A DNA stretch of 47,295 nt from Candidatus Rifleibacteriota bacterium (GTDB lineage: Bacteria > Muiribacteriota > Ozemobacteria > Ozemobacterales > Ozemobacteraceae), in NCBI GenBank assembly GCA_051747585.1, contig JBNJGH010000014.1, positions 1-47,295 of the forward strand, given 5' to 3'. Shown here piece after piece: positions 739-16,080 of the stretch. The notes under the pieces are model-generated. The model ran no database searches, was not told where the DNA came from, and saw only the letters and a list, made by a program, of their open reading frames with translations. Position numbers and translations under genes: made by a program. Position 1 is the stretch's first letter. Each line of letters opens with the position of its first letter.

Positions 739-954
739 AAACCACTGAGCCCACCGAGAGCGCGGAGGTGATTTTTTTTATCTTTTTCAGCCATTGTTTC
801 TAGCAACCAATCATCAGTCAGAAAAACACGAGTGCTTTTTTGACTGATGATTGGTTGCTAGAAAAGCCGGACGGTGAACCCGCCGGCTGATTGTCCGGCT
901 GGACAATCCCAGGCTGAAAAAGATTCTCTGTGCAACTCTGCGAGCTCTGTGGTT
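739..954. repeat. Four-way-junction intergenic repeat element, copy 1 (core 780-924)
   Basis: Core closed by ATCTTTTTCAGCC/GGCTGAAAAAGAT; long hairpin 797-864; AGCCGG-A-CGG/CCG-CCGGCT 865-888; GATTGTCC/GGACAATC 889-908; outer CCACNGAG/CTCTGTGG arms. Homologous to 12326-12536 and 15874-16080. Confidence 0.95.
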
Positions 955-1007
955 AATTATCTTCTAAATTTGGTAAAAAACATTTTTTAGTGCTAAGATA
1001 GCCTGTC

Positions 1008-2030
1008 ATGCTGAATAATAAAAGAAAACAGCAATTTTTTAAGTTTTTGCTCGTTATTAAACCACTTTTTATAGCGATTATGGTCGGGCTGTTTTTTATA
1101 TCGCCCGCTTCGCCCGGCTTTGCCCAGGTAACAATTGTCGCACCGCCTCCGGTTGTTAAAGAGAAAAATAATTCGGCAACCCCTGTGCCAGAGCAGAAAA
1201 AACAAAAAGCAGCAGAAGAAAAAATTCATTTCTATTCAGATCCAGCCCCTTTGATTCGAAAAACAAAAAGTTCAATGAACTTTGACCTTGAATTGTTTAA
1301 ACTTGAACAAGCCAAAGATTTCCCCCGAATAGATGCACCTGCAGGTTTGTATGATTTTTCGTACAGCGACAAAAACTTTAAAATTATCGCAAGCCACAGC
1401 CTAAAAGAGAAGGAGATAAAACCAGGTCAAACAATTGGCTTAGACTTTATGGTTTCAAATTTGACTTCCCGTGGCTATCGTCTAAAACAGGAAATAATTG
1501 CCCATGAAAAAATCAGAGCTGCTCATGAAAGAACTTCATTTTTACTTGAACCAGGGAAAAAAACCAATCGACACATTGCGCTTTTCTTAGACTCTTCTTT
1601 ACCTCCGGGAATTTATCAAATTGTCTATCGGCTTAATTCAACGGCCGGCAACACTTTGTCCGAAACAGTGAAATTCAAATTTGCAGTTAAAGCTTTTCCC
1701 TGCCTGAAATTCAAAAGAACTTCCTCTGCTCAAATTACAGAAAATTCATTATTCAAAGTAACCGGCGAACTTCATAACTGCGGCAATCTCGATCTATACC
1801 TGGATTTAGCCATTGGCGGCAATGCAAACAACCTGGAGGTTGTACCCTCGCGCATATCTCTTCCTGCCGGCAGCAACTGCTATCTGGAAATAAGTGGAAA
1901 ATCTCCGGCTTTGCTGCACCCAATGAAAAATGTACTGAAATTAAATTTTTCTGCCACGGCACGAACAAGCAAAAGAAACTTCGAACTTCTCAACAAACCC
2001 ATAAAATTGATTCTTGGGGCTTCTCCTTAA
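1008..2030 (+). CDS. Exported protein with Ig-like/NEW3-type beta domains; paralog of the N-terminal part of the 1337-aa usher-like protein
   Basis: Hydrophobic N-terminal signal; IKPGQTIGLDFMVSN, LPPGIYQIVY and VVPSRISLPAG are typical Ig-like strand patterns; motifs shared with 4752..8765. Confidence 0.7.
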   Translation: MLNNKRKQQFFKFLLVIKPLFIAIMVGLFFISPASPGFAQVTIVAPPPVVKEKNNSATPVPEQKKQKAAEEKIHFYSDPAPLIRKTKSSMNFDLELFKLEQAKDFPRIDAPAGLYDFSYSDKNFKIIASHSLKEKEIKPGQTIGLDFMVSNLTSRGYRLKQEIIAHEKIRAAHERTSFLLEPGKKTNRHIALFLDSSLPPGIYQIVYRLNSTAGNTLSETVKFKFAVKAFPCLKFKRTSSAQITENSLFKVTGELHNCGNLDLYLDLAIGGNANNLEVVPSRISLPAGSNCYLEISGKSPALLHPMKNVLKLNFSATARTSKRNFELLNKPIKLILGASP

Positions 2031-2075
2031 CTTGTTACCAACCTACACGTGGGCATGGCGGAATAGTGAGATTGC

Positions 2076-2247
2076 TTCGTCATTCCGGCCGAAAAAAATG
2101 AGAGCCGGAATCCAGGGTCAGGGTAATAAGTTTTTTTATTTAAACTAAGGGTTCAAAATTTTGAGCCCCTACGGTTTTGTTTCTTTAATAAAAAACGACG
2201 ATTATTCTGGATTCCTGATCCGGTTAGAACCGGTCAGGAATGACGAA
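2076..2247. repeat. CGTC-type REP doublet (REPIN/MITE-like)
   Basis: Terminal IR TTCGTCATTCC/GGAATGACGAA; left hairpin ATTCCGGC..GCCGGAAT-CCAG; right CTGG-ATTCCTGA..TCAGGAAT; central GGGTTCAAAA/TTTTGAGCCC palindrome. Confidence 0.85.
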
Positions 2248-2496
2248 TAGAGGATTAACAAACAGAATCATTTTTTTTACTCTTGGTGTTCTTTGTGACT
2301 TAGTGACTCCGTGTGAGGAGCAAATATTTTCAAAATAAATTTATTTTCATAATTATCACTAACAAAGCTTTTCAGTTTGCCGATACTTCTTCACAAGTTC
2401 TCTCATTAAAGCTATAGCTTAACAAGCTTATGATTTTTTGAGGAATGGATAATCAAATGGACTGGAAAACAATGTACACACCTGTTAAAATTTAAC

Positions 2497-2525
2497 TTGA
2501 CAAGCTTTAAACGCTTAAATAAGTT
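2497..2525 (+). promoter_or_regulatory. Putative sigma70 promoter upstream of the pilin-like gene
   Basis: TTGACA-N17-TAAGTT. Confidence 0.45.
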
Positions 2526-2772
2526 TGTTGACAGTGTCTGTAACATTTTGGGCAAACGCCTTAATCAAGGGGTTTGAAAGTTGTTTTGTTCAAAATTTCA
2601 GATAATGTCAGGTTAATATAACAATGTTAAAAAGGTATTGTACATTTAACCAAAGAATCTTGCATAGCGAGGGGGTGAGAGTAAGTAAAAAAAATTATCG
2701 GGTAAAATGTTCACTACCAAACAATATTTAGTTTTTTAGTTCTAAATAATTTTACAAGGAGATTTATTAATC

Positions 2773-3300
2773 ATGAGAGCCAAACTCTTCATTCTTCTAG
2801 CTCTATTTGTAGCCTTTTCGGCCACCTCTTTCGCAGGATCAATTGCCACCAACACAATTTCAATTGATCTGCAGGAAAACAGATCTCTGGAATTCGGAGC
2901 CGGCCAATCAACTGTTGCTACAGATGTAACCCGTCTTTCCAATGATCAGCTTGCGATTACAACCAACTGGACCCCCCAGATAGCTACCCTCAGCATTCAG
3001 CACGACCTGGGGCTTGAGCAAAAGATTACAGTTGAAACTGCCCTCCAAGATGGCGACTGGGTCGGCAGATACCTCACCGTAGAAGCTGGCATAACAGAAT
3101 TACCCGCCGGCGGGAACCCCACAGGTGAAATCAATTTAATTACAGACGGAACCGTTGGCCCTGTATCAGACCTCGTGACCGAAATACCTGCAACTTCCGG
3201 CGTAGAGGAAGTAACTCTTAATTACTTAATCGCAGCAGGACCAAATGCTTCACCTGGCTTGCATACAGCAGAAGTTTATTATACTTTGACAGACAACTGA
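2773..3300 (+). CDS. Putative major fimbrial subunit (CsuA/B / spore-coat-U-like)
   Basis: Signal peptide; 175 aa, Thr/Gly/Ala-rich; C-terminal ASPGLHTAEVYYTLTDN fits the G-x-(Y/H)...alternating-strand end of chaperone-usher pilins; AAGGAG SD; chaperone-like gene nearby. Confidence 0.65.
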   Translation: MRAKLFILLALFVAFSATSFAGSIATNTISIDLQENRSLEFGAGQSTVATDVTRLSNDQLAITTNWTPQIATLSIQHDLGLEQKITVETALQDGDWVGRYLTVEAGITELPAGGNPTGEINLITDGTVGPVSDLVTEIPATSGVEEVTLNYLIAAGPNASPGLHTAEVYYTLTDN

Positions 3301-3319
3301 TTTTTAACCTTAGAATCCC

Positions 3320-3354
3320 GCCCCCCTCTTTTTTTTCACAAAAAAGGAGGGGGC
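3320..3354 (+). terminator. Stem-loop after pilin gene (attenuator or mRNA stabiliser)
   Basis: GCCCCCCTCTTTTTT...AAAAAAGGAGGGGGC hairpin between the major and second subunit genes; weak U-tail. Confidence 0.55.
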
Positions 3355-3415
3355 TTGCTTTAGGCAAAGTTGAAGTAGTAGACTATCTTCTGAAATATTA
3401 AACAGGATTCATAAT

Positions 3416-3913
3416 TTGTCAGTGTTATTTGATAATTTTGCTAAAGTAATTTTTATTTTATATATTTTTTGCAACTTTTCGCTTGCATGCAATGCCGATT
3501 CAATAAGATTGGGTGGCACAAGCCCGCAATTGGAAATTCAAAGATCAGCATTGTCGGCACCTAAATGGCAAACAAGCACATCATCGGAATTAAGTGCAAT
3601 TATAACAACTACCGGCAATTACAAAATTACGGTTGAAGTCAATTCCTTGAATCCCTCCAAATGGCAGGGCAGGAGTTTAAAACTTGAGCTGGATGAACAG
3701 GCCGACTGGCTGGCGGAAAGTTATCTGGCTACATTTTATTGGATTAATTTAGTTGATGATGGAAGACTTTTATCAAATGCTGAGACTCTTGTCGACAATC
3801 TTGAGTCAGGCACACATCCTTATATTCCTTTAAAATATGAATGTTGGGCAAATAAAAATGCAGTTCCAGGCATAACCCAGTTAACTGTTACCTTTACCTT
3901 AATTAAACAGTAA
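3416..3913 (+). CDS. Putative minor fimbrial subunit (paralog of 2773..3300)
   Basis: TTG start; signal peptide; shares KITVE, W.GR.L, INL..DG and C-terminal NA.PG....V..TL with the upstream protein. Confidence 0.65.
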   Translation: MSVLFDNFAKVIFILYIFCNFSLACNADSIRLGGTSPQLEIQRSALSAPKWQTSTSSELSAIITTTGNYKITVEVNSLNPSKWQGRSLKLELDEQADWLAESYLATFYWINLVDDGRLLSNAETLVDNLESGTHPYIPLKYECWANKNAVPGITQLTVTFTLIKQ

Positions 3914-3936
3914 AACTAAATTTCAGGAGTAAAAAA

Positions 3937-4737
3937 ATGGCAAAGGCTTTTAAATTTCTTTTTATAATTATTTTTTCTTTTTCATGCCTGACTGCTAATG
4001 CTGTAACTGTTGAGAATCCCGCAGATGACATATATATAAGCCCGGGCGGCAATGCTGAAACTTCATTTCGTGTAATAAACCGCTCAAATAAAGAGCATCA
4101 AATAACCGTTTACCAGACAGATTACTTTTTTAATGCAGATGGTAAAAATGAATACGGTTCCCCCGGTCAGCACAAAAGATCAAATGCTGACTGGCTTGAA
4201 TTTACGCCCAAGCGCTTTTTAATCCAACCAAAGTCAAAAGTTGCTATTAATGTAACTGCCAATATTCCCCAGAAGTCTCTTAGCGGAACTTACTGGAGCG
4301 TATTGATGGTTGAATATATAGATGCAAAAGCCACAGAAGCCGCCAACACTTCAAATGCAGATATACAATCGAAAGTAACAGTTAAACGACGTACCGCCAT
4401 ACAGATTCGCACCCATATTTCAGGAACAGGCGAAATGAAAGCTCGCTATTTTAATCAATCTATAAAAGAAATTGACGGCGAAAGAAAATTTTTTGTTGAT
4501 ATGGAAAATACCGGAACCCTTTATTTTACCGGCCAGTTCTATATAAACTTCTTTGACAGCAAAGGCAAACCGGTAGAAAAAATTCTTCTTGGCAAAAAAT
4601 CACTTTATCCCGGCTGTTCTGCAAGATTTTCAGCAGACATTTCTCATCTCAAAAAGGGAAATTATACTGCCTTGTGTGTTTATGACACTTCAGGTGAAAA
4701 AGTATTCGGCGGAAAATACCAGATAGAAATCAAATAA
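3937..4737 (+). CDS. Putative fimbrial assembly chaperone (PapD-like/DUF916-like)
   Basis: Signal peptide; RSNADWLEFTPKRFLIQPK, GTYWSVLMVE and ENTGT motifs; two-Ig-domain size. Confidence 0.7.
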   Translation: MAKAFKFLFIIIFSFSCLTANAVTVENPADDIYISPGGNAETSFRVINRSNKEHQITVYQTDYFFNADGKNEYGSPGQHKRSNADWLEFTPKRFLIQPKSKVAINVTANIPQKSLSGTYWSVLMVEYIDAKATEAANTSNADIQSKVTVKRRTAIQIRTHISGTGEMKARYFNQSIKEIDGERKFFVDMENTGTLYFTGQFYINFFDSKGKPVEKILLGKKSLYPGCSARFSADISHLKKGNYTALCVYDTSGEKVFGGKYQIEIK

Positions 4738-4751
4738 AGTTTCTTTATTGA

Positions 4752-7700
4752 TTATTCAGCTTCCACCATTTCAACTTTTCTGATTATTGGCGAAACATTA
4801 AAGGTTAGTTTATTCTCAGCTTCAGGTTTTACATTAATAAAACCTTTTTCCGGACTGATTCGATAACCTTTCGGGATGGTATTTTCGTAAACTCTATATT
4901 TCCAGGAACCTGCCGGCAAACCGTAAAATTTAAATTTTCCCTCTGAATCTGAAACGGCTGTGTATCGTCTTTTATTTGATCTTACTTCCAATATGACTCC
5001 CGCAAGCTTCTGTGCTTCAATTTTTCTAAAGCCTGCAGGCATTGGGGCTAAAATATCTTTACCTGCTTCGTCTTTTATTTGAACAGTATCATCAGGAATT
5101 TCCGTTGATGCGACCTTAATCTGCCCGGAAAAAGTGCAGCCTTCCTCAAGTAAAAGGGTTACTGAAGCTACTTTTCCACCCGGAATATAAACTTTCAAGG
5201 GCAAGCCTTGCTGCGAAATTTTATTTAAACCGCTGTTTCTACGATCTATATCAAGAGTATAAGTACCCGGAGTCAGATCGGCAAAAACAAAATTTCCATC
5301 AGAATTTGTAACTGCTGCCATGTTTTTCATCAATAAGGTTATATTATCTAAAGATCGGGTCTGACTGCCGACTATTTCTTTAACCTGACCTTTCAATGCC
5401 CCTATTTGGTTGTTTCTGCCTGTCGGCATGCCGAACTCTCGAGTAAGGCTAAGCTGATAATAAACAGGGGCTTCTGCATAAACAGTTGAATATGAATTTT
5501 TTGACATCCTGAAATTAACGCGATTATTTGATTTTTTATAATTTAAATTTAAATTCATATTTTGACTGGTTCTGTCTGTTTCACTGTAATTGGTCTGGCG
5601 AAAGTTGAAAATAGCTGTAAGAGCGTTTGTCACTCTAAAGTTGATCCCCATTCCCAGACTGTTACTATTATCTTGAAAGTAATCATTACTACTATTATTT
5701 TTTTCCATTGATCCGTAAGCATTTAACATAAGTTTTCGGGTTATTTTGTAACTTCCATTAAATCTGTGCTGTATTCTATCTTTTTGCGTCCCATCAATCA
5801 GGTCATCAAGAACACGCTTGGAGAAAGAATAGTTTGAACTGTATCTTCTGCCATTTTTTGTTACAGACCCCGTATAAGCCTTGGTCTTAGTGTTATACTC
5901 ATTGGAAATTCTATCGAAACGGTGACTGTCACTATAGTTCAATCTGAAATAAGTATCTTTATTCAATCTATAACTGACACCTGTTCTCATAGAATCATTT
6001 TGTGAAGCCGGGGTGGAATCAGATTCAACCAGCCGATGCTGCTTAGACTTAGAATAAGATACAAAGCTCTTTATATTTTTGCCCAGTGGTATACTAACAG
6101 AAGTTCTGGTGTTTTCATTACCACTGTTGCTACCGGCATAAATCACCCCCGTGTCGCTATGACTTACGCTAAAAGTTGCGTAACTTCGAACTTTTGTAAC
6201 ATAATTCAATTTAAAAGCTGCATCTCTTGTATCTGCAAGATCACCGCCCCACTTTTTCCCAACTTCGCCGGTCAAACGTGAAATTCTGTTGGGACGAAAT
6301 TTAAAAGCCAGGGTGGTAAATCTTTCTTCAGGACTCAATTTATTTGTTTTACTGGTAGATACAAAATGACTTAACTTTAAATTAAGTTTCCTGCCAAAGG
6401 ACTGAGACACGAAAGCACCTTTTCCTTCAAGTTCATTGATTCGATAACGAGTTTCATAATTTATAAAGCCAACTTCGGTTTCATTGGTTAAATTGTAATC
6501 AACACCAATACCACGGCCGGTATAAGAACGAGAAAGCGCTGCCACACCAAAGCTATGATCACCGATCGCTACTTTCATTTTTCTGTCATTATAAAGTAAG
6601 CTTGAAGTCTCTCTGGAATAGGACAAACCTGAGTCTCTATTCGAACCTTTGTCGCGCACAAGAAATTCAATTTTACGGCTATGTGAATCATCCAGGTAAC
6701 CCTCTGATGAAACTTCCATCTGGGTGCTGTATTCACCTCTAAAACTTTTAACTCTGACAGTTGCATCTACAGGTAAGCGATGTTTAAAGTCTGTTTTAGT
6801 TCCGGCTTTGGTAAAAAATTTAAAGGTTATTATCTGTTTAAGTAAAACGGGTTTCTGGCTCTTGCTTAAGTCTCTTACAGTCAGATAAGTTACAAGTGAA
6901 TGACCTGGTTGGTTACCAACACCTGTTGTCCCTTTTATTACCAGATCAACAAATTCACCCGGAGCCAGATCGGCTTTTTCCTGCGAAAGATCTAATCTGA
7001 AATGCTTTTGTTCGCTGGCCTCAATTCCTAACGAAAGCTTAGTATTACTATTATTGAAAAGCTTGCCTTTGATTGTGAAGTCTTCGCCATAAATGACGCT
7101 GCCGGGCTTTTCTTCGATGACAAAATTAAGGTCGAGCATTTCCATTATGTTGAATTTGAATGAAAAACTACCATGGATCGCCTGGTCATTGCGCTCGAAG
7201 ACATTATAAGCAAATGTATGTTCGCCGGCTTTAAGATATTGAGGCACAGTAACCATAACAATACTGTTATAGGTTTCCATTGGCTCAAGACTGAATTCTG
7301 CAGGCGGAAAGGCCAGTTGAAAACCTTCGGGCATATCGAACTCTTCGACGAAATGCCCTGGTCTGCCGGATATGTTGGTAATCTGGAAACTTATGGTAAA
7401 GCTTTCGCCGGGTTCTACATACATGCTTTGCAAATCGGTGGCAGCTTCAATATGAAGGCCGCTGTCAAAGGAGTTTACCCCATAAATTACCGAGCCTTTA
7501 TTGACCTCTTCAGTTTTTACCACAAAGCTTCTATCTCCAGGAGCGACCTCTTTATCGGATTTTTTTGCTGAGGGTTTTTCTGGTTCAATTTTCTTTTTTG
7601 AAGTTTCTTTTTGCCTGTCAGCATCTGACTTAGCAGAAGCTTCGGTTTCTGTAACTTTCTTCACAGTTTCTTCTGCAATTGTATCTTTTTTTATTGCAAC

Positions 7701-8765
7701 ATCTTTAACCGTTTTGGCCTGTTGTTTGTGAGGTCTTTTTTTCGCTTTTTGCCTTTTTTGCGCAGTTTTCTTTGCAATCGTCGGCTCTATTACTTTTTCG
7801 ATTGGCTTTTCAGGTGTTTTTAATTCAGAAGAGCCTGGCTTAACAGGTTTTTTAGTTTCTGCAGGCGGTTCTGACGACTCGACATCTGAATAGCCTTTAA
7901 TTCTACGCCTTAACAGCTCGAGAGTTTTGCTTTTCTGCAGAATTGAATCTTCGGGGGTTCTGCCAGACTTAATCGGCTGCTTATCTAAAGTTTTTGTTTT
8001 ATTGGATTGCACAGTTTCTTGTGCAAGTTCTTTGCCGGATTCAGCCGGTGTCTTTGAAGTTTTTTCGGATTGTACCGGCGACCGCCCAGGGGCTTCAGCT
8101 TTTTTAGCAACAGCAGGTTTACTAATTTTACCAGTTCCCCCTGGCGAACGTCGGGGTGTTTTTATTTTTTGCTGTTTCGCTTGCGCAGGTTTTTTGTATG
8201 ACGGCTCTGCCTGGCTGACAGTTTTTTCAGATCGCTTTTGCAAAGGTTTGCCTGAAACTTTTGCTTTTGTCTTTAACTGCTTATTTTTAAGCGCCCTTCT
8301 AAATTTTCTGATCACAGAAGGATCACCGGTTAAATAAACAAAGGTCGACTCAAGCTGTTCCCGGGTTAATTTATTGCGAATTTCCTTGAGCGAATTTACT
8401 ACAGCCAGCGGATTACCTGCGCGATCGACCAGAATTAAAGGCATTCCCGAAGGAGCCCTGTCAGCTTCTTCCAATTTCAACAAGACGGGCGGCGGATTAA
8501 CAATCATTGATTTTTGCGAAGGGTTTGGCGTTACCCTTTCTATGGCAGATTTTTCATTGCGATGAGACATTTTTTTTGCAGGAGCTACTGATGTTTTAAG
8601 ATCAGACCCTTTCTTCTTCTCTTCATATATAGGTGGGGGAGAAACAATTTGAGGCTGTTGAAAAGCGTTTTGCCCCACAGCAAAAACTCTGGAATACGAT
8701 ATAAAGCATTCCATTATCAGCAAGAAAAAAACAAGTAAAAATAAGCTACTTGTTTTACTTCTCAT
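4752..8765 (-). CDS. Large usher-like outer-membrane protein with Lys/Glu/Pro-rich N-terminal linker
   Basis: Signal peptide; low-complexity aa ~170-410; two Ig-like modules; long amphipathic beta-strand region; two C-terminal carboxypeptidase-regulatory-like domains (TNSDGNFVFADLTPGTY, SDSEGKFKFYGLPAGSW). Convergent with the chaperone gene. Confidence 0.6.
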   Translation of the reverse strand: MRSKTSSLFLLVFFLLIMECFISYSRVFAVGQNAFQQPQIVSPPPIYEEKKKGSDLKTSVAPAKKMSHRNEKSAIERVTPNPSQKSMIVNPPPVLLKLEEADRAPSGMPLILVDRAGNPLAVVNSLKEIRNKLTREQLESTFVYLTGDPSVIRKFRRALKNKQLKTKAKVSGKPLQKRSEKTVSQAEPSYKKPAQAKQQKIKTPRRSPGGTGKISKPAVAKKAEAPGRSPVQSEKTSKTPAESGKELAQETVQSNKTKTLDKQPIKSGRTPEDSILQKSKTLELLRRRIKGYSDVESSEPPAETKKPVKPGSSELKTPEKPIEKVIEPTIAKKTAQKRQKAKKRPHKQQAKTVKDVAIKKDTIAEETVKKVTETEASAKSDADRQKETSKKKIEPEKPSAKKSDKEVAPGDRSFVVKTEEVNKGSVIYGVNSFDSGLHIEAATDLQSMYVEPGESFTISFQITNISGRPGHFVEEFDMPEGFQLAFPPAEFSLEPMETYNSIVMVTVPQYLKAGEHTFAYNVFERNDQAIHGSFSFKFNIMEMLDLNFVIEEKPGSVIYGEDFTIKGKLFNNSNTKLSLGIEASEQKHFRLDLSQEKADLAPGEFVDLVIKGTTGVGNQPGHSLVTYLTVRDLSKSQKPVLLKQIITFKFFTKAGTKTDFKHRLPVDATVRVKSFRGEYSTQMEVSSEGYLDDSHSRKIEFLVRDKGSNRDSGLSYSRETSSLLYNDRKMKVAIGDHSFGVAALSRSYTGRGIGVDYNLTNETEVGFINYETRYRINELEGKGAFVSQSFGRKLNLKLSHFVSTSKTNKLSPEERFTTLAFKFRPNRISRLTGEVGKKWGGDLADTRDAAFKLNYVTKVRSYATFSVSHSDTGVIYAGSNSGNENTRTSVSIPLGKNIKSFVSYSKSKQHRLVESDSTPASQNDSMRTGVSYRLNKDTYFRLNYSDSHRFDRISNEYNTKTKAYTGSVTKNGRRYSSNYSFSKRVLDDLIDGTQKDRIQHRFNGSYKITRKLMLNAYGSMEKNNSSNDYFQDNSNSLGMGINFRVTNALTAIFNFRQTNYSETDRTSQNMNLNLNYKKSNNRVNFRMSKNSYSTVYAEAPVYYQLSLTREFGMPTGRNNQIGALKGQVKEIVGSQTRSLDNITLLMKNMAAVTNSDGNFVFADLTPGTYTLDIDRRNSGLNKISQQGLPLKVYIPGGKVASVTLLLEEGCTFSGQIKVASTEIPDDTVQIKDEAGKDILAPMPAGFRKIEAQKLAGVILEVRSNKRRYTAVSDSEGKFKFYGLPAGSWKYRVYENTIPKGYRISPEKGFINVKPEAENKLTFNVSPIIRKVEMVEAE

Positions 8766-9064
8766 AGAACTAATAATTTTTTAAGCAAGCCTGATTGCCC
8801 TGCCATAATGAATTTATTGCCGCCTGTTCTTACTTTTCCGTAAACCTGATCAAATCTATCTGTATTTTTTTCCACCAGGTTGCTTGAAAAAGAAAGGTTC
8901 TCTAAATAAATCGACCTTGAGGCTTAAAACGATTAGGAATTTTCGCGAAGTTGAATCCTCGCAATCAAAAAATTGTTTTGTATTTTTACCCGGTCATTTC
9001 GACTAAAACTCAATGACCAGACATCGACTTCAACCAGATAACCAGAATTTAGACGAATCAAACC

Positions 9065-9088
9065 GGGCCGACCGCGGTCGGCCCCTAC
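9065..9088 (-). repeat. GTAG-type REP singlet
   Basis: Minus strand GTAG followed by the perfect 20-bp palindrome GGGCCGACCGCGGTCGGCCC. Confidence 0.7.
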
Positions 9089-9195
9089 AAAAATAATTTT
9101 CAATGAAAAACTCAACAGACTCCCCAAAACGGACAATCTGACTTTGACATTTCTCATTTGGTTTGAGGCTTTTATGAGAGATCTTTCTTATGGAA

Positions 9196-12171
9196 TCAGA
9201 AGGGGCTTTGGTCGGCTACTTCAGTGTGGTCAGTTGCATTCATGCCTTTTACAAATCTGTAAATTTCGCCGACCCACAAAACTACAGAAGTTGCAACAAT
9301 ACATATCAGCCAGTCTGAAAGATTCAAAGGCGTAGTTCGAAACATTAAACCACCAAACTGAACGATCAAAAACTGAATAAGCACTATTGCCGGCAAAATC
9401 ACCATAAACCCACGATTTTCCCAGATACCTTTCAATGATGAATGCTTAAAACCAAGCGCTCTTGCATTGAACATGTTCCAGACCTGTAGCATTACAAATA
9501 TGGTAAAAAACTTCGAAAGTTCATAAGTGTCTACAAGACCATCATTTTGATAATATTTCAGCAGAAAAATCAGGAAAATGTAGAAAATTATCCCGACCCC
9601 GAATATGTGCTTGTACATTGGTCTGGAAACAATAAAATCTCCCGGGTTGCGTGGAAAACGCGACATGACCTTCCAGTGTGGAGGCTCAGTTGCAAGCGCA
9701 AGTGCGGCAAAGGTATCCATAATAAGGTTGACCCAAAGCATTTGAATTACAGTAAGCGGCATTTTTACCCCGATAAATGGTCCGGTTAAGGCCACCGACA
9801 GAGCAACAAAATTAATGGTCAATTGAAACATAACAAAGCGTTGTATATTTTCATATAAGGAACGCCCCCACATAATACCCTTGACCAGACTTGGAAAAGA
9901 ATCGTCAAGCAGCACAATATCACTTGCTTCGCGGGCTACAGAAGCACCTGTCTTGCCCATCGAAAGACCAACATTGGCATAATTCAGGGCAGGAGCATCG
10001 TTGGTGCCGTCACCCGTAACAGCGACAACTTCATCGAGACTCTGCAGAGTTTTAACAAGCTTAAGTTTGTCAGCAGGGCGCGCCCTGGACATAATTCTAA
10101 TTTTGTCAGCTACTTTTCGACTTTCTCCTTCTGATAGTTTTTGAAACTCAGCTCCGGTAATATGAAAGTCTTCAAGATTGTCTGTATCATGAAGCAAACC
10201 AATCTGGCGACTTATTTCCAGCGCAGTTTTTGAATTATCACCGGTTACGACTTTTACTTTTACCCCGGCCTTTCTACAAACTTCGAGAGCTTTGGGAACA
10301 TCAGGGCGAATCGGGTCAGCGATAGCCACAAATCCTAACCAGACCATGTCTTTCGCAACTTCTTCCAACTCTGCTTTTTTATTTATCTCTTCTTGTCGCT
10401 TAAAAGCAAAGGCCAGAGTACGCATCCCCTTTTGCTGAGCTTGATTAAGCTGATCAAATATCTGGTCACTGAACTTATCTATTTTTTCTATTCCTCTGGT
10501 AGTTAAGACGTGGCTGCAAATGTCTGCCAAAAGCTCTGGCGCACCTTTAACATAAAGAACTTTTTCTTCGCCCATAGCGGAATAACCGTAACTGCCCATC
10601 ATTTTTCTTTCGGTAGAAAAGGTCCATTCTTTCTCGAGCTTGAAATTTTTTCTTAAAGCTTGATAATTGATACCCTGACTATGCAACCATAAAAGAATAG
10701 CACCTTCTGTAGGATTTCCTATTGCAGAAATCTCATTTTCTTTCAGGCTTAGATTAGCGCTACTGTTAACAGAGATAAGCTCTGCAAGCAGCTTTTCTGC
10801 ATCTGAGTTCAAATCTGAACTAAGCTTGTTATCGGGCAAGGCTGGAAAATAAATGGAATGCATCGCCATTTTGTTCTGAGTCAGGGTTCCGGTTTTATCT
10901 GAACAAATAACGGTAGCAGCGCCGATGGTTTCACAGGCGTGCATTCTGCGCACCAGATTGTTTGCCGCTGTCATGCGCCTCATACTGTAAGCCAGGCTCA
11001 AGGTTACGCTCATGGGCAGCCCCTCGGGAACAGCTACCACAATAATTGTAACCGCAATCATAAAGTATTTTAAGAATTCAGAAAGCGCATCTGTGGTTAA
11101 CCATAAGGTTGGGTCCTGTGCCAGAACTCCAGTAACGCTTCCGGTGGCAGCGCAGAAAAGAAAGAATCCCAGCCCGGCAATTACCGGCTTTAACCAGGCC
11201 TTAATGCCCTGTCCCCTTAAAAAGGCGGGATATTTAATTCTTTTTCCACTGAGTTCAACCGCATCAGCAATAATAGGAAACCATACCCTTGCCAGCATGA
11301 TCATCGAACCGGCAAAAACTAATACCGAAAAAGTCCACTGGGAACTTGTAAGCTGAAACTCTGAGTTGAAATACCCTCTCATTACAAGTGCTATAAAGGT
11401 AAAGAAGGCTATCGAAAAACCTATAATTCCAATAAGCTTACTCAAGCGATCAAGCTGGCGGTTCAAGGGTGTAACTTCATTGCTTTCTTCACCGGCCGCC
11501 CTCGCAGCTTTCCCTATTTCGGTTTTATCACCGACTGCGGTGACTGAGAAAATTCCGTGCCCATTAGCCACCATTGTGCTTCTAAGAAGAGAATCCGGGG
11601 CATAAGTGTTTTCAGAGCTGCTGTCATCGGATTCGGCAGTGGAACAAAATTTTGAAACCGGCAAAGATTCTCCGGTTAATTTTGACTCATCTATCTGCAA
11701 AGCAACGTCTTCCAAAAGACGGCCATCTGCCGGAATTTCCTCACCGGACTCTATAATAACGACATCACCGACAACAATGTCTTTTCTGGCTACCTTGGAA
11801 TAAATGCCATCTCTCAAAACTGTAACCGGTGCCTCATCGGAAACCTGGTTCAGAATATCGAATTCTTTGCCTGCCTTATACTCATTCAAAAATGCAAGAA
11901 CGGTGGCCAGCAGAATGGCAACAATAATTCCAATACCCTCGAGATATTCGCCGTTTATTGTTCCGACTCCGATGGCAATTATTGCCGCAATCATAAGAAT
12001 TCGGATTATCGGATCATCAAACTTTTCAACAAGCAGCATCCACCAGGGATCGCGTGGCGGTGGAGTTAAAACGTTAGAGCCGTATTTTTCGCGATTTTTA
12101 GAAACTTCTTCAGATGTAAGCCCTGTTTTATTGATTTTTTGTGCTTGATCTTCTGCTGCCATTATTTCCAC
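9196..12171 (-). CDS. Calcium-translocating P-type ATPase, PMCA type (start may be ATG at 12162)
   Basis: TGES, VPEGLP, DKTGTLT, KGAPE, GDGTND, QMLWVNLIMDTFAALALATEPP. Confidence 0.95.
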   Translation of the reverse strand: MEIMAAEDQAQKINKTGLTSEEVSKNREKYGSNVLTPPPRDPWWMLLVEKFDDPIIRILMIAAIIAIGVGTINGEYLEGIGIIVAILLATVLAFLNEYKAGKEFDILNQVSDEAPVTVLRDGIYSKVARKDIVVGDVVIIESGEEIPADGRLLEDVALQIDESKLTGESLPVSKFCSTAESDDSSSENTYAPDSLLRSTMVANGHGIFSVTAVGDKTEIGKAARAAGEESNEVTPLNRQLDRLSKLIGIIGFSIAFFTFIALVMRGYFNSEFQLTSSQWTFSVLVFAGSMIMLARVWFPIIADAVELSGKRIKYPAFLRGQGIKAWLKPVIAGLGFFLFCAATGSVTGVLAQDPTLWLTTDALSEFLKYFMIAVTIIVVAVPEGLPMSVTLSLAYSMRRMTAANNLVRRMHACETIGAATVICSDKTGTLTQNKMAMHSIYFPALPDNKLSSDLNSDAEKLLAELISVNSSANLSLKENEISAIGNPTEGAILLWLHSQGINYQALRKNFKLEKEWTFSTERKMMGSYGYSAMGEEKVLYVKGAPELLADICSHVLTTRGIEKIDKFSDQIFDQLNQAQQKGMRTLAFAFKRQEEINKKAELEEVAKDMVWLGFVAIADPIRPDVPKALEVCRKAGVKVKVVTGDNSKTALEISRQIGLLHDTDNLEDFHITGAEFQKLSEGESRKVADKIRIMSRARPADKLKLVKTLQSLDEVVAVTGDGTNDAPALNYANVGLSMGKTGASVAREASDIVLLDDSFPSLVKGIMWGRSLYENIQRFVMFQLTINFVALSVALTGPFIGVKMPLTVIQMLWVNLIMDTFAALALATEPPHWKVMSRFPRNPGDFIVSRPMYKHIFGVGIIFYIFLIFLLKYYQNDGLVDTYELSKFFTIFVMLQVWNMFNARALGFKHSSLKGIWENRGFMVILPAIVLIQFLIVQFGGLMFRTTPLNLSDWLICIVATSVVLWVGEIYRFVKGMNATDHTEVADQSPF

Positions 12172-12198
12172 CGTATTTCAATTTGACCTTACCAGCAG

Positions 12199-12227
12199 AT
12201 TATAAAGGTTTACACTTTCTTTATCAA
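12199..12227 (-). promoter_or_regulatory. Sigma70 promoter of the ATPase gene
   Basis: Minus strand TTGATA-N17-TATAAT. Confidence 0.7.
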
Positions 12228-12325
12228 TTAAAGCTCCAAATTGTAGCAATTCTCGGTTAGCTACTATCAGCTTGTTTCAGAAAAAAGATATTCCTCACAT
12301 GCAGCCTCAAAGCCGCAAAGAAAAT

Positions 12326-12536
12326 AACCACAGAGCTCTCAGAGAATCACGGAGAATCTTTTTCAGCCATTGTTCCCAGCAACATCAGGCCCTCAGAAAA
12401 ACACTGGTGCTTTTCTGAGGGCCTGATGTTGCTGGGAAAGCCGGACGGTGAAGCCGCCGGCTGATTGTCCAAAGGACAATCCCTGGCTGAAAAAGATTAA
12501 AAAATCGTCTCGGTGCGCTTAGTGATCTCAGTGGTT
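12326..12536. repeat. Four-way-junction intergenic repeat element, copy 2 (core 12355-12498)
   Basis: AATCTTTTTCAGCC/GGCTGAAAAAGATT; perfect 28-bp arms 12373-12400/12411-12438; same two short hairpins as copy 1; outer arms swapped relative to copies 1 and 3. Confidence 0.95.
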
Positions 12537-12640
12537 TAAATTCTTTATTTGCCCTGAAGAAATAATACCGGAACTTTTGGTAATCAGCTAATAATGATTG
12601 ACCGAGAATAGCTGTCCAAATTGCGATACCTATTCGAATG

Positions 12641-12688
12641 TCGGTATCGCTATCGGAATCGAAATCGAAATCGAAATCGAAATCGAAA
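12641..12688. repeat. Hexamer tandem repeat (TCGNNA)8 ending in (TCGAAA)5
   Basis: TCGGTA TCGCTA TCGGAA then five TCGAAA; overlaps the hairpin GCGATACC/GGTATCGC (12623-12650). Confidence 0.9.
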
Positions 12689-12714
12689 AAACTGGCTGGA
12701 AACAGCAATTACAG

Positions 12715-15700
12715 TCAATGTTTTATTGAAATTATTTCAAACATTTCGACCACTGAAGTTTTACCCTTGACCGAAGTTTCTTGAAGCTTTTCATATTCGA
12801 CATGTTCTTTTACCAGCTCAAGAGTGGCACTGCTTATTATTACATGAGAATGCCTGCCCTTTTTGCTCATCCCCTCAAGTCTGGAGGCGACATTAACGGT
12901 GTCTCCGATTACCGTATGATCCATTCTGCCGGGGGAACCGATATTGCCGGCAATAACTTCGCCTGAATTAATGCCGACTCCAATCATAATTGGGAACTTG
13001 TTTTCCAGCTCTCTTTGCTGATTAAAATCTTTTAATGAATCCATCATGGCCATACCAGCTTTCACCGCTTTAAGAGCCATTGTTTCGGGTTCGAACCCCG
13101 GCTCATCTTTGCTGATAAATTGAGCCATAATTGCATCACCGATAAATTTATCAATATCGCCGTCATATTTTTCAATTACCATATTCATTTTAGCAAAATA
13201 ATCATTTAAAAGAGCGACAACTTCTTCTGCATCATAGCTTTCAGACATAGTAGTAAAACTACGAATATCTGAGAATAAAATAGAAGCAGGAACCCTGCGG
13301 CCGCCAAGCTTAATCTCATGGGTGCTTTTTACTGCCTCAACAGCAGACTTCGACAAGTATCTTGTCATTCTTTCACGCTCATTCAGCCCTCTGGTCATCA
13401 GGTTTACTGCTGACCCAAGATTTACCAGTTCGTCTTTTCCGGGTAAAGAAATTCGACAATCATAGTTTCCTTCTTCTACCTGTTGAACTGTTTGTTTTAA
13501 AAGCTGTACCGGCTGAATAAAAGAACGTCCGGTGATTTTTACAAGAACGTATACGATAAGAATAGACACAAGCAAAATTATCAGAATCAAAATTTTTAAC
13601 AGCTGCAATCTTTCACTAATTGAGCTGTAATCATGCAATGCCATTACCGTATAAGATTCAATTCCGGATGGTATAAAGCTGTAAAGCAACACTTTTTTAC
13701 CATTGCTGAACCTGTATGAGTCTTTTAGCGAAACGCCCGCAAACCTTGTCGGCTCAGTAATTTTTCCGATACCGGTTGCATCTTTACTTTTAGCTGTGTA
13801 GTCAAACAATGGGTTCTTTATATTAGACCTGCGAAAATAATTATTGCCGTGAAAATCATTTTTCCCGTAGAAAACCTGAATTTCTTTACCAATTTTTGCT
13901 TCCTGCTGAAATTTGTCAATCATCAGCTGCAAATAAAGCTCATCAAACTTTCGATCTTTAATTATAAAAACAAGAATAAAAACCTCATTTTCATCTTTTA
14001 AGGGTGAAAACTGCCCCACATAAACTAAAGTTCTGCGCCCGGTAAATTTCAATTCAAAAGCGCTGCCCTCTTTTGCCCCGAGAATTGTCTGAATATCTGC
14101 AAATTGGGCTCCTCCGGTTTCTTCTATCATCAGGTCCATAAGACTTACTGCTCCTGCGTATCCTTTTTCGACAAGCTGCCCGCTCAGCCTCAATTTAAGC
14201 TTTGCCAAAGATTTAACCAGAGGCAAAAGGCCTTCACGCTCATTTGACTCGAACATATCTCCAGTAAGCTCTTCTCCAGCTGCGTTAAAAAGATAAAGGT
14301 GCTCTATACCAGCAAGATCAAAATAATTGTCTATAGTTTTATTTAAACCTGCTCCGGCAAAGCGCTTTTTTCCTTCTTTCTTATAATAGCCGCACAAATC
14401 TTTAATAAAATCATCGCCTATGACCTCAATATGCCTGAAAACATATTCGACATTCTCTTCTATTTCTTTTTTTACTCTTTCAAGCTTCTTATAAGCCTGA
14501 TTTTCGTAAAACTCGGCTCGGTCCTTAACCAGCTCGTTACCAAAATGAAAAACAGCAATCATTGGCAATGCCATTGCCAGGCAGAACAATCCAAGCATCT
14601 GCCATTTGATACTCAATGCGGCTCCATTATTACTGCGAAAATAAAAAACGACAAAAACAGCTAAAATAATGACTATAAAAGCAACAAAAAACAAAAGAAA
14701 CTTTTTTTGCTCGATTTGCATCTCAATATCTTTAATACTCTTTGCCGAAACAACTATTAATCGGCTGTTAAGTCTTTTTATTACCAATAACAGACTGTTT
14801 TTGCGATAAACCCCGTCAGGTTGCGAGCTTATCCAGTTTCGCCAGAATTTCTGCTGCGTTATTGAAAACGGATAGGGTAAATGAGAGGCAGTCTGATTAA
14901 GTTCATCGATCCAGCCTAGAGAAATTTGCTTATTCTGCCAGTCTGCACGTCTTCTCATCTTGAATCGACTCAAGCCAAAAACAGTCGGAAGCTTTTCTTC
15001 TTTAATTACAGCTAGAAATCCTTTGAATAAAAAATTACTATCCGGTAAATCATCGCCAAAATTCTGCCAGTATAGATACTGTATTTTTCCGGAGGTAGTA
15101 TTCAACCGGGTAATTTTGCCGTATTTAACAAAGTCGATAAGGCCCGAATCATCGCCAAAATACCTGCTTACCATAGGCAAAAACTTCTTATAGCCGCGAG
15201 AATTTTCATCTTTACCCTGACGTTTTTTCAGCCTTAAACAGATTGATTTTATGAGCTTTGAATAAACAAACTTTGGCAGTAATTTATCATTACTGCTTAT
15301 TTTTTTGTAATGACTGTCCCAGTAAATGAATTCAATGCCCGGTATGAGTTTTTCCAGCTTTTTATGATAATGAGAAAGCTTTAAGCCGTCGTGTAATACA
15401 AACCAGCGATTAAGTTGATCGGCTGAAATAAAGGGGATGAAAGAAAGCTTGGGCAAAAAAACTCTATTTCGATTAATTCGAAACATCAGGGGTAAAATAT
15501 TTTTTTCGTATTCTTTTAAAATTTCATTAATTTGAATTGATTGTTCCTGCTCCTGCACTGCCCTGCCGGCAACTTTTTCAAGTTCGAGCTCTAAATCGCT
15601 TAACTTACGATCTGCAGATTCGTGCATAGCACCAACCATCTGATTAAAAAGTATAATCAGCGGAAAGCACAACAAAAGAACAATAATAAAAAACCATTTC

Positions 15701-15771
15701 CACAGGGATAAGGGCTCGAGAACAAAGTTTTTGCCCTTAGACTTTTTCTCAACCGATATGTCGCTCGACAT
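12715..15771 (-). CDS. Membrane-bound class III adenylate/guanylate cyclase with HAMP domain
   Basis: Several TM segments; HAMP (DELVNLGSAVNLM); ILFSDIRSFT, DKFIGDAIMA, GDTVNVASRLEG. The Lys in DKFIGD and Asp in MDHTV favour ATP. Confidence 0.92.
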   Translation of the reverse strand: MSSDISVEKKSKGKNFVLEPLSLWKWFFIIVLLLCFPLIILFNQMVGAMHESADRKLSDLELELEKVAGRAVQEQEQSIQINEILKEYEKNILPLMFRINRNRVFLPKLSFIPFISADQLNRWFVLHDGLKLSHYHKKLEKLIPGIEFIYWDSHYKKISSNDKLLPKFVYSKLIKSICLRLKKRQGKDENSRGYKKFLPMVSRYFGDDSGLIDFVKYGKITRLNTTSGKIQYLYWQNFGDDLPDSNFLFKGFLAVIKEEKLPTVFGLSRFKMRRRADWQNKQISLGWIDELNQTASHLPYPFSITQQKFWRNWISSQPDGVYRKNSLLLVIKRLNSRLIVVSAKSIKDIEMQIEQKKFLLFFVAFIVIILAVFVVFYFRSNNGAALSIKWQMLGLFCLAMALPMIAVFHFGNELVKDRAEFYENQAYKKLERVKKEIEENVEYVFRHIEVIGDDFIKDLCGYYKKEGKKRFAGAGLNKTIDNYFDLAGIEHLYLFNAAGEELTGDMFESNEREGLLPLVKSLAKLKLRLSGQLVEKGYAGAVSLMDLMIEETGGAQFADIQTILGAKEGSAFELKFTGRRTLVYVGQFSPLKDENEVFILVFIIKDRKFDELYLQLMIDKFQQEAKIGKEIQVFYGKNDFHGNNYFRRSNIKNPLFDYTAKSKDATGIGKITEPTRFAGVSLKDSYRFSNGKKVLLYSFIPSGIESYTVMALHDYSSISERLQLLKILILIILLVSILIVYVLVKITGRSFIQPVQLLKQTVQQVEEGNYDCRISLPGKDELVNLGSAVNLMTRGLNERERMTRYLSKSAVEAVKSTHEIKLGGRRVPASILFSDIRSFTTMSESYDAEEVVALLNDYFAKMNMVIEKYDGDIDKFIGDAIMAQFISKDEPGFEPETMALKAVKAGMAMMDSLKDFNQQRELENKFPIMIGVGINSGEVIAGNIGSPGRMDHTVIGDTVNVASRLEGMSKKGRHSHVIISSATLELVKEHVEYEKLQETSVKGKTSVVEMFEIISIKH

Positions 15772-15873
15772 TTTTTCTCTCTCAGATGATTTCGTTTATT
15801 ATCTTAAACCATGAAGTGCTATTTGCATAAAATTTTTATTTTTAACAAATGAAAAAACAAAAAACAAAATTTC

Positions 15874-16080
15874 ACCACCGAGGCCTCAGAGAACACGGAG
15901 CTGTTTTTAATCTTTTTCAGCCTATGTTCACAATATTACCCAGCATTCAGAAAAACATTAATGCTTTTCTGAATGCTGAGTAATATTGTGAAAGCCGGAC
16001 GGTGAAACCGCCGGCTGATTGTCCAACGGACAATCCACGGCTGAAAAAGATTCTCTGTGTAACTTTGTGTCCTCTGTGGT
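15874..16080. repeat. Four-way-junction intergenic repeat element, copy 3 (core 15909-16052)
   Basis: AATCTTTTTCAGCC/GGCTGAAAAAGATT; 28-bp arms 15927-15954/15965-15992 with one mismatch; same two short hairpins. Confidence 0.95.

Follow-up and report, generated by a model that had tools for sequence, protein, structure and literature searches.

Three intergenic repeats in the 47,295-bp stretch of DNA analyzed here (the window) share a core that folds into a four-way junction. An earlier note had described them as a three-copy element that was either a non-autonomous mobile element or a multicopy noncoding RNA (ncRNA) scaffold. Which of these they are, how far each unit extends, and what keeps the junction paired are the questions raised by this locus.

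The repeats and the mobile unit around them

Folded as single-stranded DNA (ssDNA), each window copy formed a four-way junction (z = −14.7, −14.5, and −13.4 across the three copies), and none of 200 shuffles folded as well. The coordinates of the repeats, helices P1, P3, and P4 with their loops, the adjoining of P2, P3, and P4 without linkers, and the common orientation on the plus strand were all reproduced. P2 is a hairpin as described, whereas its length of 28 to 29 bp proved too short, with arms of 32 to 33 nt including the tip. Differences between copies had been placed in loops, linkers, and compensatory changes only. In fact, the P2 body differs among the window copies at many positions beyond the tip, and copies 1 and 3 have one additional P2 mismatch each. 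Both core strands fold alike (−100.8 and −103.9 kcal/mol), and core length is nearly constant (140 to 145 bp in 104 of 109 pairs).

The window holds three cores and one lone end fragment, and only copy 2 is a complete unit. It is larger than initially thought, spanning 371 bp (12244 to 12614; plus strand here and below unless stated otherwise) between identical 9-bp target site duplications at 12235 to 12243 (TCCAAATTG) and 12615 to 12623. Its parts follow in the order left arm, inner CACAGAG arm, core, inner arm, and right arm. Imperfect terminal inverted repeats of ∼28 bp lie at 12244 to 12271 and 12587 to 12614 (minus strand), each matching the end pattern with 1 mismatch. Inner arm A (12326 to 12354) starts with AAC, followed by three CAC(A/G)GAG-type words, and inner arm B (12509 to 12536, minus strand) is inverted relative to it. 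The 142-bp core between them (12356 to 12497) is oriented A-core-B and comprises P1 (12356 to 12368/12485 to 12497), P2 (12373 to 12438), P3 (12439 to 12462), and P4 (12463 to 12481). The left boundary is also marked in run X1, from a related strain, by loose contig ends at 12244/12245. The match of one X1 contig ends exactly at 12243, beyond which 57 letters remain, but no skip joint was listed, and hence no pair of empty and filled sites was seen. Runs X2 and X3 gave short pieces only.

Copy 1 is preceded by a decayed outer B arm with a terminal repeat remnant (664 to 739; z = 8.1 versus shuffles). Inner arm B (740 to 767) is followed by a 145-bp core (780 to 924; P1, 780 to 792/912 to 924; P2, 797 to 864; P3, 865 to 888; P4, 889 to 908) and by inner arm A (926 to 954, minus strand), beyond which there is no significant outer A arm (z = −0.6). 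In copy 3, inner arm B (15873 to 15900) has no significant outer B arm (z = −0.3). The 142-bp core (15910 to 16051; P1, 15910 to 15922/16039 to 16051; P2, 15927 to 15992; P3, 15993 to 16016; P4, 16017 to 16035) precedes inner arm A (16053 to 16081, minus strand), with at most a faint outer-arm remnant beyond (z = 3.2). Both of these cores are oriented B-core-A. The single orientation reported for all three copies thus holds on the plus strand but not between their own arms, where copy 2 is opposite to copies 1 and 3. A lone left-end fragment without a core lies within a cluster of other repeats (23674 to 23740, minus strand; E = 7e-7). The genes flanking the three copies are arranged +/+ (copy 1, between the open reading frames [ORFs] at 349 to 588 and 1008 to 2030), −/−, and divergently, as originally described, and the rejection of a cis riboswitch is upheld.

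The three window repeats are the centers of a small noncoding mobile element. Instead of three copies, the assembly (330 contigs) contains 145 matches, comprising 107 full and 38 partial cores. Full units are noncoding and 367 to 373 bp long. Their imperfect inverted terminal repeats (∼28 bp) gave 137 pattern matches in the assembly compared to none for a reversed control, and both ends were present in 53 of 108 core pairs. Among the 40 of these 53 two-ended copies with canonical spacing, 9-bp target duplications were exact in 12 and within one mismatch in 20, versus 0.6 for shuffled pairings; 16 of the 40 had more than 2 mismatches within the 9-mer. Every other duplication length from 4 to 13 bp yielded at most one exact case. 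On the basis of terminal inverted repeats, 9-bp target duplications, and fixed unit length, the element is a MITE. Terminal inverted repeats with 9-bp target duplications are marks of DDE-type transposition, and the unit delimited in this way would probably be moved by an enzyme of that class.

Cores are mostly intergenic, with only 1 of 107 full cores overlapping an ORF of at least 150 amino acids. For 74 copies, flanking genes were divergent in 28 cases, codirectional in 38, and convergent in 8, compared to 166, 328, and 67 of 561 gaps genome-wide, a comparison that rests on crude gene calls. No neighbor gene recurred beside the copies among 179 flanking ORFs, the largest cluster having 3 members.

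Relatives, candidate transposases, and known systems

The earlier view that the repeat matches no known family was confirmed for Rfam, in which no family was hit at the gathering score; a search by E value gave subthreshold matches only, mostly to generic hairpin (microRNA) models. The element was not found in 40 relatives by BLAST, in 86 genomes of the phylum by end pattern, in 50 genomes of the family by covariance model, or in the metagenome contigs, viral contigs, plasmids, and phages searched. Two scans of genome contigs returned 0 and 1 end-like matches, the latter without a transposase beside it; these scans, like those of metagenomes, viral contigs, plasmids, and phages, may omit very close genomes. 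The absence from relatives indicates a lineage-specific expansion. No description of the element was found in titles and abstract beginnings of the largely open literature searched.

DDE domains in the assembly were represented by PF01609 (2 hits), PF13808 (1 hit), and PF13701 (1 hit), with none for PF13359, PF00872, PF13546, and PF14294. The MITE terminal repeat was absent from all three DDE loci in this assembly, which is 93.6% complete in 330 contigs. Three candidates for a parent insertion sequence (IS) were rejected since their ends differ: a gene and an element that we take, from ends and protein, to be IS1380-like (C47) and IS1182-like (C194), respectively, and a PF13808 gene (C307). 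A fragment on C51 fuses an IS1380-like piece to a MITE end; since the C47 copy has no such end, we take the junction to have arisen by chance. CAG ends and 8- to 10-bp duplications are found in the ISMae2 group, ISAs1, and some IS4 subgroups. The ends of the present element likewise begin with CAG, and its 9-bp duplication fits, but no element with matching ends was found. Assignment to one of these groups is a lead only; the portion of the ISMae2 paper available to us gives no end sequence (PMC2779907).

As a MITE, the element is ordinary. Prokaryotic type II MITEs such as Correia, QMITE2, and Chunjie are described, in the available parts of the literature, as short, noncoding, intergenic, multicopy sequences with terminal inverted repeats, target duplications, and stable folds that are moved in trans, all as here, and Correia elements are also reported to invert (PMC10969869, PMC3184786). 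The element differs from these in its nested build, with IS-like ends enclosing a CACAGAG arm pair and, within that pair, a branched core. Inversion affects the core and the hairpin tip while the ends stay fixed, conservation is higher at the interior junction than at the ends, and no parent IS was found. The bcr1 repeats of the Bacillus cereus group, as far as the accessible text describes them, share a length of ∼150 bp, cruciform-like independent stem-loops, compensatory changes, flanking direct repeats, and a nonconserved genomic distribution; however, they have 5-bp repeats, are transcribed, and show covariation that was read as acting at the RNA level (PMC3184786). The element studied here has a 9-bp duplication and strand-symmetric covariation.

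REPIN/RAYT elements are characterized by a GTAG- or CGTC-type tag and are not known to have a long target duplication. Such tags are documented in the consulted part of one study (PMC3733652). Here, the inner arms begin with AACCAC, and duplications are 9 bp long. REPIN/RAYT and Ssn/SRM systems resemble the element in that, according to the sections available, an inverted repeat pair brackets a small enzyme gene at some loci and is gene-less elsewhere (PMC3184786, PMC11893778). In contrast to both, the arms are of the CACAGAG type and go with GxxExxY genes in relatives rather than with RAYT or GIY-YIG genes, terminal repeats and 9-bp duplications mark the full unit, and the assembly has no cognate gene. 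A GIY-YIG gene (C121) had no such repeats within ∼300 bp. The assembly has a single Y1 transposase gene; a different repeat lies downstream of it, and upstream the contig breaks off, which leaves a Y1/RAYT link unsupported. Of the first proposal, the non-autonomous mobile element stands, whereas the HUH/RAYT route is not supported, in view of this different repeat and of the terminal repeats and 9-bp duplications.

Orientation of the core and pairing in P2

Relative to its arms, the core occurred in both orientations (64:40 among 104 copies), including within each P4 subfamily (38:4 and 25:36). On an arm tree of 60 copies, 12 orientation changes were needed (bootstrap, 9 to 12), only 2 of them forced by well-supported branches. 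Shuffled labels required 15.8, indicating that orientation is inherited along sublineages. Run X1 provided independent data: joints between opposite strands at 12369/12485, with an overlap of 14 letters, correspond to the isomer flipped at P1. The P2 tip inverts as well, between flanking repeats other than those of the core. Its supposedly conserved A-C opposition is one of several states among 103 copies (G/T, 48; A/C, 34; A/T, 14; G/C, 6; C/T, 1), and the tip states G/T with CTCG (27 copies) and A/C with CGAG (11 copies) are exact reverse complements.

Although 61 distinct 20-mers were present in the variable P2 stem, 1,995 of 2,060 positions were Watson-Crick paired, and G-T/T-G (14) and A-C/C-A (16) oppositions showed no wobble bias on either strand. 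In 37 young copies, P2 contained 11 two-sided Watson-Crick changes, each seen once, versus 5 one-sided changes. At ∼1% change per site, independent hits would yield ∼0.2 or fewer two-sided changes. P1, P3, and P4 of the same copies had no two-sided change and 17 distinct one-sided variants. The concentration of two-sided changes in P2, together with the missing wobble bias, points to arm-to-arm copying of DNA and not to selection on RNA. Copying of one DNA arm from its partner is the most likely reason that P2 stays paired.

We therefore assign a probability of roughly 0.7 to the following reading: the element is a ∼370-bp noncoding MITE, bounded by terminal inverted repeats and flanked by 9-bp duplications, that was likely mobilized by a DDE transposase acting in trans; its core and tip are found in both orientations, and template switching during replication likely maintains the pairing of P2. 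When the replication fork exposes them as single strands, the P2 arms, each 32 bp long, could template each other, and a change in one arm would then either spread to its partner or be removed. The tip segment would be inverted as a block together with its single mismatch. For the whole core, the 14-bp P1 repeats might allow inversion by the same route or through recombination. The published accounts of template switching at inverted repeats, in the parts available, report that it homogenizes arms and inverts spacers, and they describe perfect stems, inverted loops, and stems altered on both sides in a single step, like those seen here (PMC8604942, PMC8794818). Compared to these reports, the present case involves two nested levels, extends over more than 100 paralogues of a single bacterial element, and is strong in P2. 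The paralogues form a natural data set for template switching, with an effect far stronger in a 32-bp stem than in stems of 8 to 13 bp.

Inner arms, the conserved junction, and rival readings

The junction sequence outlives the transposon ends. Outer arms were near background in 23 of 89 copies; in these, P1, P3, and P4 were 94% identical to the consensus and P2 was 61% identical. Identity of P1/P3/P4 stayed steady as the outer arms disappeared (0.936, 0.941, and 0.936 in three bins; Spearman, −0.19). Template switching leaves this conservation unaccounted for, which counts against our preferred reading, as do the two-sided changes outside P2 among diverse copies, the armless copies without any arm remnant (both described below), the full copies with poorly matching 9-mers, and the failure to find a transposase with these ends. 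That reading also includes a probable exchange of sequence between copies and a loss of outer arms from older ones. The sequences of P1, P3, P4, and the P2 tip would be preserved, most likely because only copies with an intact junction seed new copies or conversion. In young copies, cores were more uniform than their arms, which may in part be an artifact since short-read assembly can blur repeat interiors. Retention of the tip mismatch in 82 of 103 copies indicates that arm asymmetry survives assembly.

The inward-pointing inverted pair of CACAGAG-type arms flanks the core and pairs around it in the fold. In relatives, the word pointed inward on both sides of 6 of 25 GxxExxY loci with a strict motif and 13 of 25 with a broad one, compared to 2 and 3 of 45 control windows, respectively. 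Since similar arms bracket GxxExxY genes there, the arm pair and the 142-bp branched palindrome that it surrounds likely represent part of that repeat system, captured without a gene. A check for GxxExxY genes, suggested in the earlier note, therefore gave a mixed outcome: the inner arms match the repeats around such genes in relatives, but no such gene was found in the assembly, either by PF13366 or by a profile from 25 relatives. The gene was present in 0 of 5 genomes of the genus and 29 of 87 of the phylum.

These arms also suggest an alternative in which the inner ∼215-bp unit (CACAGAG arm pair and junction core) is a separate REPIN-like element that would first have spread under a junction-specific enzyme, such as a PD-(D/E)XK nuclease of the GxxExxY type, before IS ends captured it. 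Cleavage of the junction by this enzyme, followed by repair templated by the opposite arm or a second copy, would produce flips and conserve P1, P3, and P4. The steady P1/P3/P4 identity fits this alternative, as does the enrichment of inward word pairs at GxxExxY loci. Furthermore, 11 of the 23 armless copies have no arm remnant and may never have had MITE ends, and the triple CACAGAG-type word occurs at at least 126 viral-contig loci. Run X1 contains an arm pair joined by 22 other letters where the core would be (15900 to 16066), and forms of 126 to 155 bp exist that have both MITE ends and no inner unit. Against this, besides the missing gene in assembly and genus, no GxxExxY gene lay within 800 nt of the word at 80 viral loci, and the core covariance model matched none of the viral word loci. 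Twelve of the 23 armless copies retain remnants of MITE arms, no consistent duplication surrounds armless inner units, and deletion between AAAGAAA-type microhomologies could account for the short forms. Nothing links the joint in X1 to the copy 3 site, and no A-B arm pair in the assembly is cleanly empty, for which reason insertion of the core into an empty arm pair was also rejected. On balance, we regard a separately spread inner unit as unlikely.

A narrower version is, if anything, slightly more doubtful. In this version, the inner unit would be a gene-less GxxExxY/CACAGAG member carrying a four-way DNA junction of defined sequence as its cargo, and a PD-(D/E)XK nuclease would recognize and cut P1, P3, and P4. 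Repair on the template of the opposite arm or a second copy would flip the core, perfect P2, and spread the core from site to site independently of the MITE ends that captured it later. The PD-(D/E)XK superfamily includes junction resolvases. Within titles and abstract beginnings of the open literature searched, nothing tied GxxExxY/PDDEXK_3 to flanking repeats. If such a nuclease did recognize the junction, this would give a function to a widespread uncharacterized protein family whose cassettes have arms resembling the inner arms here. The GxxExxY reading, if true, would make the repeat a nested selfish element with two mobilization systems and a ready-made substrate for that nuclease family.

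Conservation of P1, P3, and P4 in armless copies, near-constant core length, and intergenic placement would also fit a core domesticated by the host, either as a protein-binding or nucleoid-organizing DNA site or as a bidirectional signal for transcription or mRNA stability, with P1/P3/P4 and the length of P2 kept after the MITE ends decay. Such a role is quite improbable, given that the element was not found in any of 86 related genomes and that its gene context is in line with the genome average. Moreover, the core of copy 2 contained no promoter-like or terminator-like site.

The second of the original proposals, a multicopy structured ncRNA in which selection on the transcript would preserve the junction, an argument also made for Bacillus bcr1, draws on the very stable fold, on a P3 loop and bulge kept mostly on one strand, and on covariation. 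Among 48 diverse copies, two-sided changes were found in 31 of 60 pairs, compared to 0 of 500 shuffles. However, 21 of the 31 pairs lie in P2, with 2 of 13 pairs in P1, 6 of 9 in P3, and 2 of 8 in P4. Neither strand favors G-U pairs, the two fold equally well, and a given strand shows the tip mismatch either as A-C or as G-T. Tip and core also flip. Two-sided changes arose without intermediates, no Rfam family matched at the gathering score, and the element is confined to one lineage. We consider an ncRNA very improbable. The repeat is instead a warning case: it passes a standard covariation test although its variation is strand symmetric and arises without intermediates, and repeats of this kind may be misread as structured RNAs.

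A programmed switch, in which a site-specific recombinase would flip the core between the 14-bp P1 repeats and thereby alter expression of a neighboring gene, is the least credible reading even though both orientations are common and the break points fall within a short inverted repeat, since orientation is inherited along sublineages, the P2 tip flips too between other repeats, the core of copy 2 lacks a promoter-like site, and no recombinase family occurs among the 27 window proteins.

A role of the P2 arms as guides or spacers was rejected because a target is lacking. Arm 16-mers matched outside masked copies for 3 of 61 arms versus 4 of 305 shuffles, and these three are variants of the commonest arm and thus probably unmasked fragments. 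For 14-mers, 20 of 61 arms matched compared to 36 of 305 shuffles, a modest excess.

Ends, duplications and copy number of the mobile unit

The positions and helices assigned in the earlier note were borne out for the three cores in the window (copies 1, 2 and 3, at 780-924, 12356-12497 and 15910-16051), as were their gene contexts (+/+, -/- and divergent); the neighboring genes are unrelated (P-type ATPase, adenylate/guanylate cyclase, a creatininase-family gene and an unknown ORF). Folded as single-stranded DNA, each copy formed the proposed four-way junction, in which P2, P3 and P4 adjoin directly (z = -14.7, -14.5 and -13.4), and in each case 0 of 200 shuffles folded as well as the native core. 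Both strands folded alike. The claim that the core matches no known family also held: Rfam gave 0 matches at gathering score and, at lower stringency, sub-threshold matches only, mostly to generic hairpin models.

The element is not confined to three copies, as had been thought. An iterated profile search of the assembly (4.14 Mb in 330 contigs, the window being contig C14) recovered 145 cores, including 107 full-length ones. According to crude gene calls, one core overlaps an ORF of at least 150 aa, and the 74 copies that lie between two genes (28 divergent, 38 co-directional, 8 convergent) are close to the genome background of 561 long gaps (166, 328 and 67, respectively). The element was found neither in 40 relatives (BLAST), 86 phylum genomes (end-pattern search) or 50 family genomes (covariance model) nor in metagenome, viral, plasmid and phage collections; a related strain, sequenced in run X1, contains many copies.

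Outside the CACAGAG-type inner arms (A and B) flanking the core, many copies extend by ∼80 bp per side, terminating in imperfect ∼28-bp inverted repeats that start with CAG. Both ends are present in 53 of 108 core pairs, and 40 copies with canonical spacing have a unit length of 367-373 bp. In these 40, the flanking 9-mers were identical in 12 and had at most one mismatch in 20 (shuffled pairings, 0.6), with more than two mismatches in 16; other duplication lengths from 4 to 13 never gave more than one exact case each. Complete copy 2 occupies 12244-12614 between two copies of TCCAAATTG, and loose ends of X1 contigs fall at 12244/12245, at its left boundary. Copy 1 has retained a decayed B arm (z = 8.1) and copy 3 at most a faint A-arm remnant (z = 3.2). 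Terminal repeats together with a target duplication of fixed length are marks of DDE transposition; the element is therefore a MITE, and the mobile element suspected in the earlier note is supported by its terminal repeats and 9-bp duplications. An empty site at the position of copy 2 is hinted at in X1, where the match of one contig breaks off at 12243, leaving 57 letters over, and no skip joint is listed.

Searches with seven DDE-type Pfam families for a parent transposase returned three loci, none with MITE ends. IS groups that combine CAG ends with 9-bp duplications may offer a lead. A single-copy locus on contig C307 (198-2632), in which a 303-aa ORF overlaps a 508-aa transposase matching PF13808, has ends unlike those of the MITE. 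On C51 (2336-2870), an IS1380-like 5' fragment (87% to C47) terminates in the MITE right end, which we took as a chance fusion. Forms of 126-155 bp that have the two MITE ends but lack the inner unit (C30, 9267-9392; C3, 10958-11083; C11, 42995-43149) may be deletions or an ancestral small MITE. Judging from excerpts of the respective papers, type II MITEs (PMC10969869) and Bacillus bcr1 (PMC3184786) are among the closest described cases, and Ssn/SRM (PMC11893778) is the closest for the arm-plus-nuclease design.

Inner arms and the persistence of the junction

Our preferred reading, to which we give a probability of about 0.7, is that the element is a MITE specific to this lineage, that its CACAGAG arm pair was captured, and that copying at the DNA level perfects and flips its branched palindromic core. 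In relatives, the CACAGAG word points inward on both sides of GxxExxY genes (PD-(D/E)XK nuclease family) in 6 of 25 cases with a strict motif and 13 of 25 with a broad one, compared with 2 and 3 of 45 control windows. This tie between the inner arms and GxxExxY cassettes is new for this element; in the titles and opening abstract lines retrieved for GxxExxY and PDDEXK_3, flanking repeats are not a subject. Most simply read, the interior of the MITE is a fragment captured from a CACAGAG/GxxExxY repeat system, without the gene. That a junction nuclease, of GxxExxY type or another, mobilized the inner unit independently is improbable; the gene is present in 29 of 87 phylum genomes and was not found in the source assembly or in 5 genomes of the genus. 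At least 126 loci in the viral collection also carry the triple word, and of 80 such loci, none had a GxxExxY gene within 800 nt and none had a core. Arms pointing inward on one or both sides of GxxExxY genes were seen at loci L055-L057, L059, L062, L064 and L068 of relatives, and several of these cassettes were inserted directly after the stop codon of a host gene.

The junction was found to outlast the transposon ends, which, like the helix-by-helix test of two-sided change below, is new. In 23 of 89 copies the outer arms were near background (0.58 versus 0.53), with remnants in 12 and none in 11, and P1/P3/P4 still had 94% identity to the consensus, equal to intact copies, with P2 at 61% and the inner arms at 82%. 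In young (little-diverged) copies P2 changed no faster than P3 (∼1% each); in the long term, therefore, changes in P1/P3/P4 were purged and paired changes in P2 retained. Across 20 young copies, cores had fewer singletons per site and copy than their arms (0.008 versus 0.018) and fewer shared variants per site (0.04 versus 0.22-0.28), and arm variants occurred in mixed combinations, although short-read assembly can yield both core uniformity and such mixing. Conservation of P1/P3/P4 may reflect either that only intact-junction copies serve as sources of new copies or conversion, or a past enzyme of the inner unit's own, or host use; a core domesticated by the host as a DNA site is quite unlikely. 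One X1 arm pair, not tied to a site in the window, has 22 other letters where the core would be, which fits core loss and core gain alike.

Two-sided changes and inversion of the core

The covariation check proposed in the earlier note revealed strong covariation, with two-sided change in 31 of 60 pairs (48 copies, covariance model; 0 of 500 shuffles as high), distributed over P2 (21), P3 (6), P1 (2) and P4 (2); a younger copy set gave 21 of 60. Over all 103 copies, the variable P2 stretch comprised 61 distinct 20-mers and was Watson-Crick at 1995 of 2060 positions, G-T/T-G (14) and A-C/C-A (16) being equally rare. In 37 young copies differing by ∼1% per site, two-sided Watson-Crick changes numbered 11 in P2 (each observed a single time) and one-sided changes 5, whereas by our arithmetic independent hits would give ∼0.2 or fewer two-sided changes; P1/P3/P4 had none and 17 distinct one-sided variants. 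RNA selection cannot produce double hits at such a rate and arm-to-arm copying can: the covariation is DNA-like, and a noncoding RNA is very improbable. Excerpts of two papers describe template switching as homogenizing arms and inverting spacers (PMC8604942), and as mimicking compensatory change and inverting loops (PMC8794818). Two-sided changes at single loci could still be assembly artifacts; since the tip mismatch was kept in 82 of 103 copies, assembly did not wipe out arm asymmetry wholesale. The variable P2 stem (e.g., 12376-12395) shows a weak period of 3, with C at every third pair across the 61 variants; as some variants would hold a stop codon, it does not look coding.

Since the two inner arms differ, each element has a polarity. 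The shared core orientation reported earlier stood for the window strand (all +); relative to its own arms, the core of copy 2 is reversed compared with those of copies 1 and 3. Among 104 copies, 64 cores pointed one way and 40 the other (excluding four longer pairs, of which two were spurious and two had a second long hairpin), and both orientations occurred in each P4 subfamily (38:4 and 25:36). An arm tree of 60 copies gave 12 orientation changes (bootstrap, 9-12; shuffled mean, 15.8). This tree is weak, and its well-supported branches force only 2. Independently of the assembly, X1 contained opposite-strand joints at 12369/12485 sharing 14 letters, the P1 repeat. The tip of P2 inverts as a block, its states being reverse complements (G/T with loop CTCG, 27; A/C with loop CGAG, 11). 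The A-C opposition once described as conserved proved variable (A/C 34, G/T 48, A/T 14, G/C 6, C/T 1; 103 copies). DNA-level copying, as in our preferred reading, would both perfect P2 and flip the branched core within the MITE; a programmed switch is the least probable of the readings considered.

In variant cores of 190-195 bp (C52, 1328-1517; C92, 8206-8400), P4 gives way to another long hairpin of P2 type whose sequence differs. In a small subfamily (C18, 5012; C13, 14041; C78, 11863; C126, 9127), the left arm joined to P3-P4-P1 is a different one, which shares the outer part of P1.

Other repeats and neighbors

The window contains a cluster of several repeat kinds at 23343-23750, including hairpins, a tandem run of GAGCAC type and an isolated left MITE end (23674-23740, minus strand), and, between genes at 2030-2330, an accumulation of other types of hairpin repeats, which may resemble Ssn-related motifs. 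Genome-wide, 182 clusters are formed by one word type and 90 by a second, with a few situated near cores. An ATCGAA-type tandem run (12624-12690) immediately follows the right target duplication of copy 2, with a comparable run behind an end-like 27-mer in a Desulfobacteraceae MAG (L024, 2501-2527). Two of five matches to a presumably Rpn-like protein (C3, 54549-55472; C215, 3019-3921) are located 270 bp or less from a core, one of them between two copies. At 46924-47295, at least six copies of a 45-bp period with Pro/Ala-rich frames run off the contig end, upstream of mnmG/gidA.
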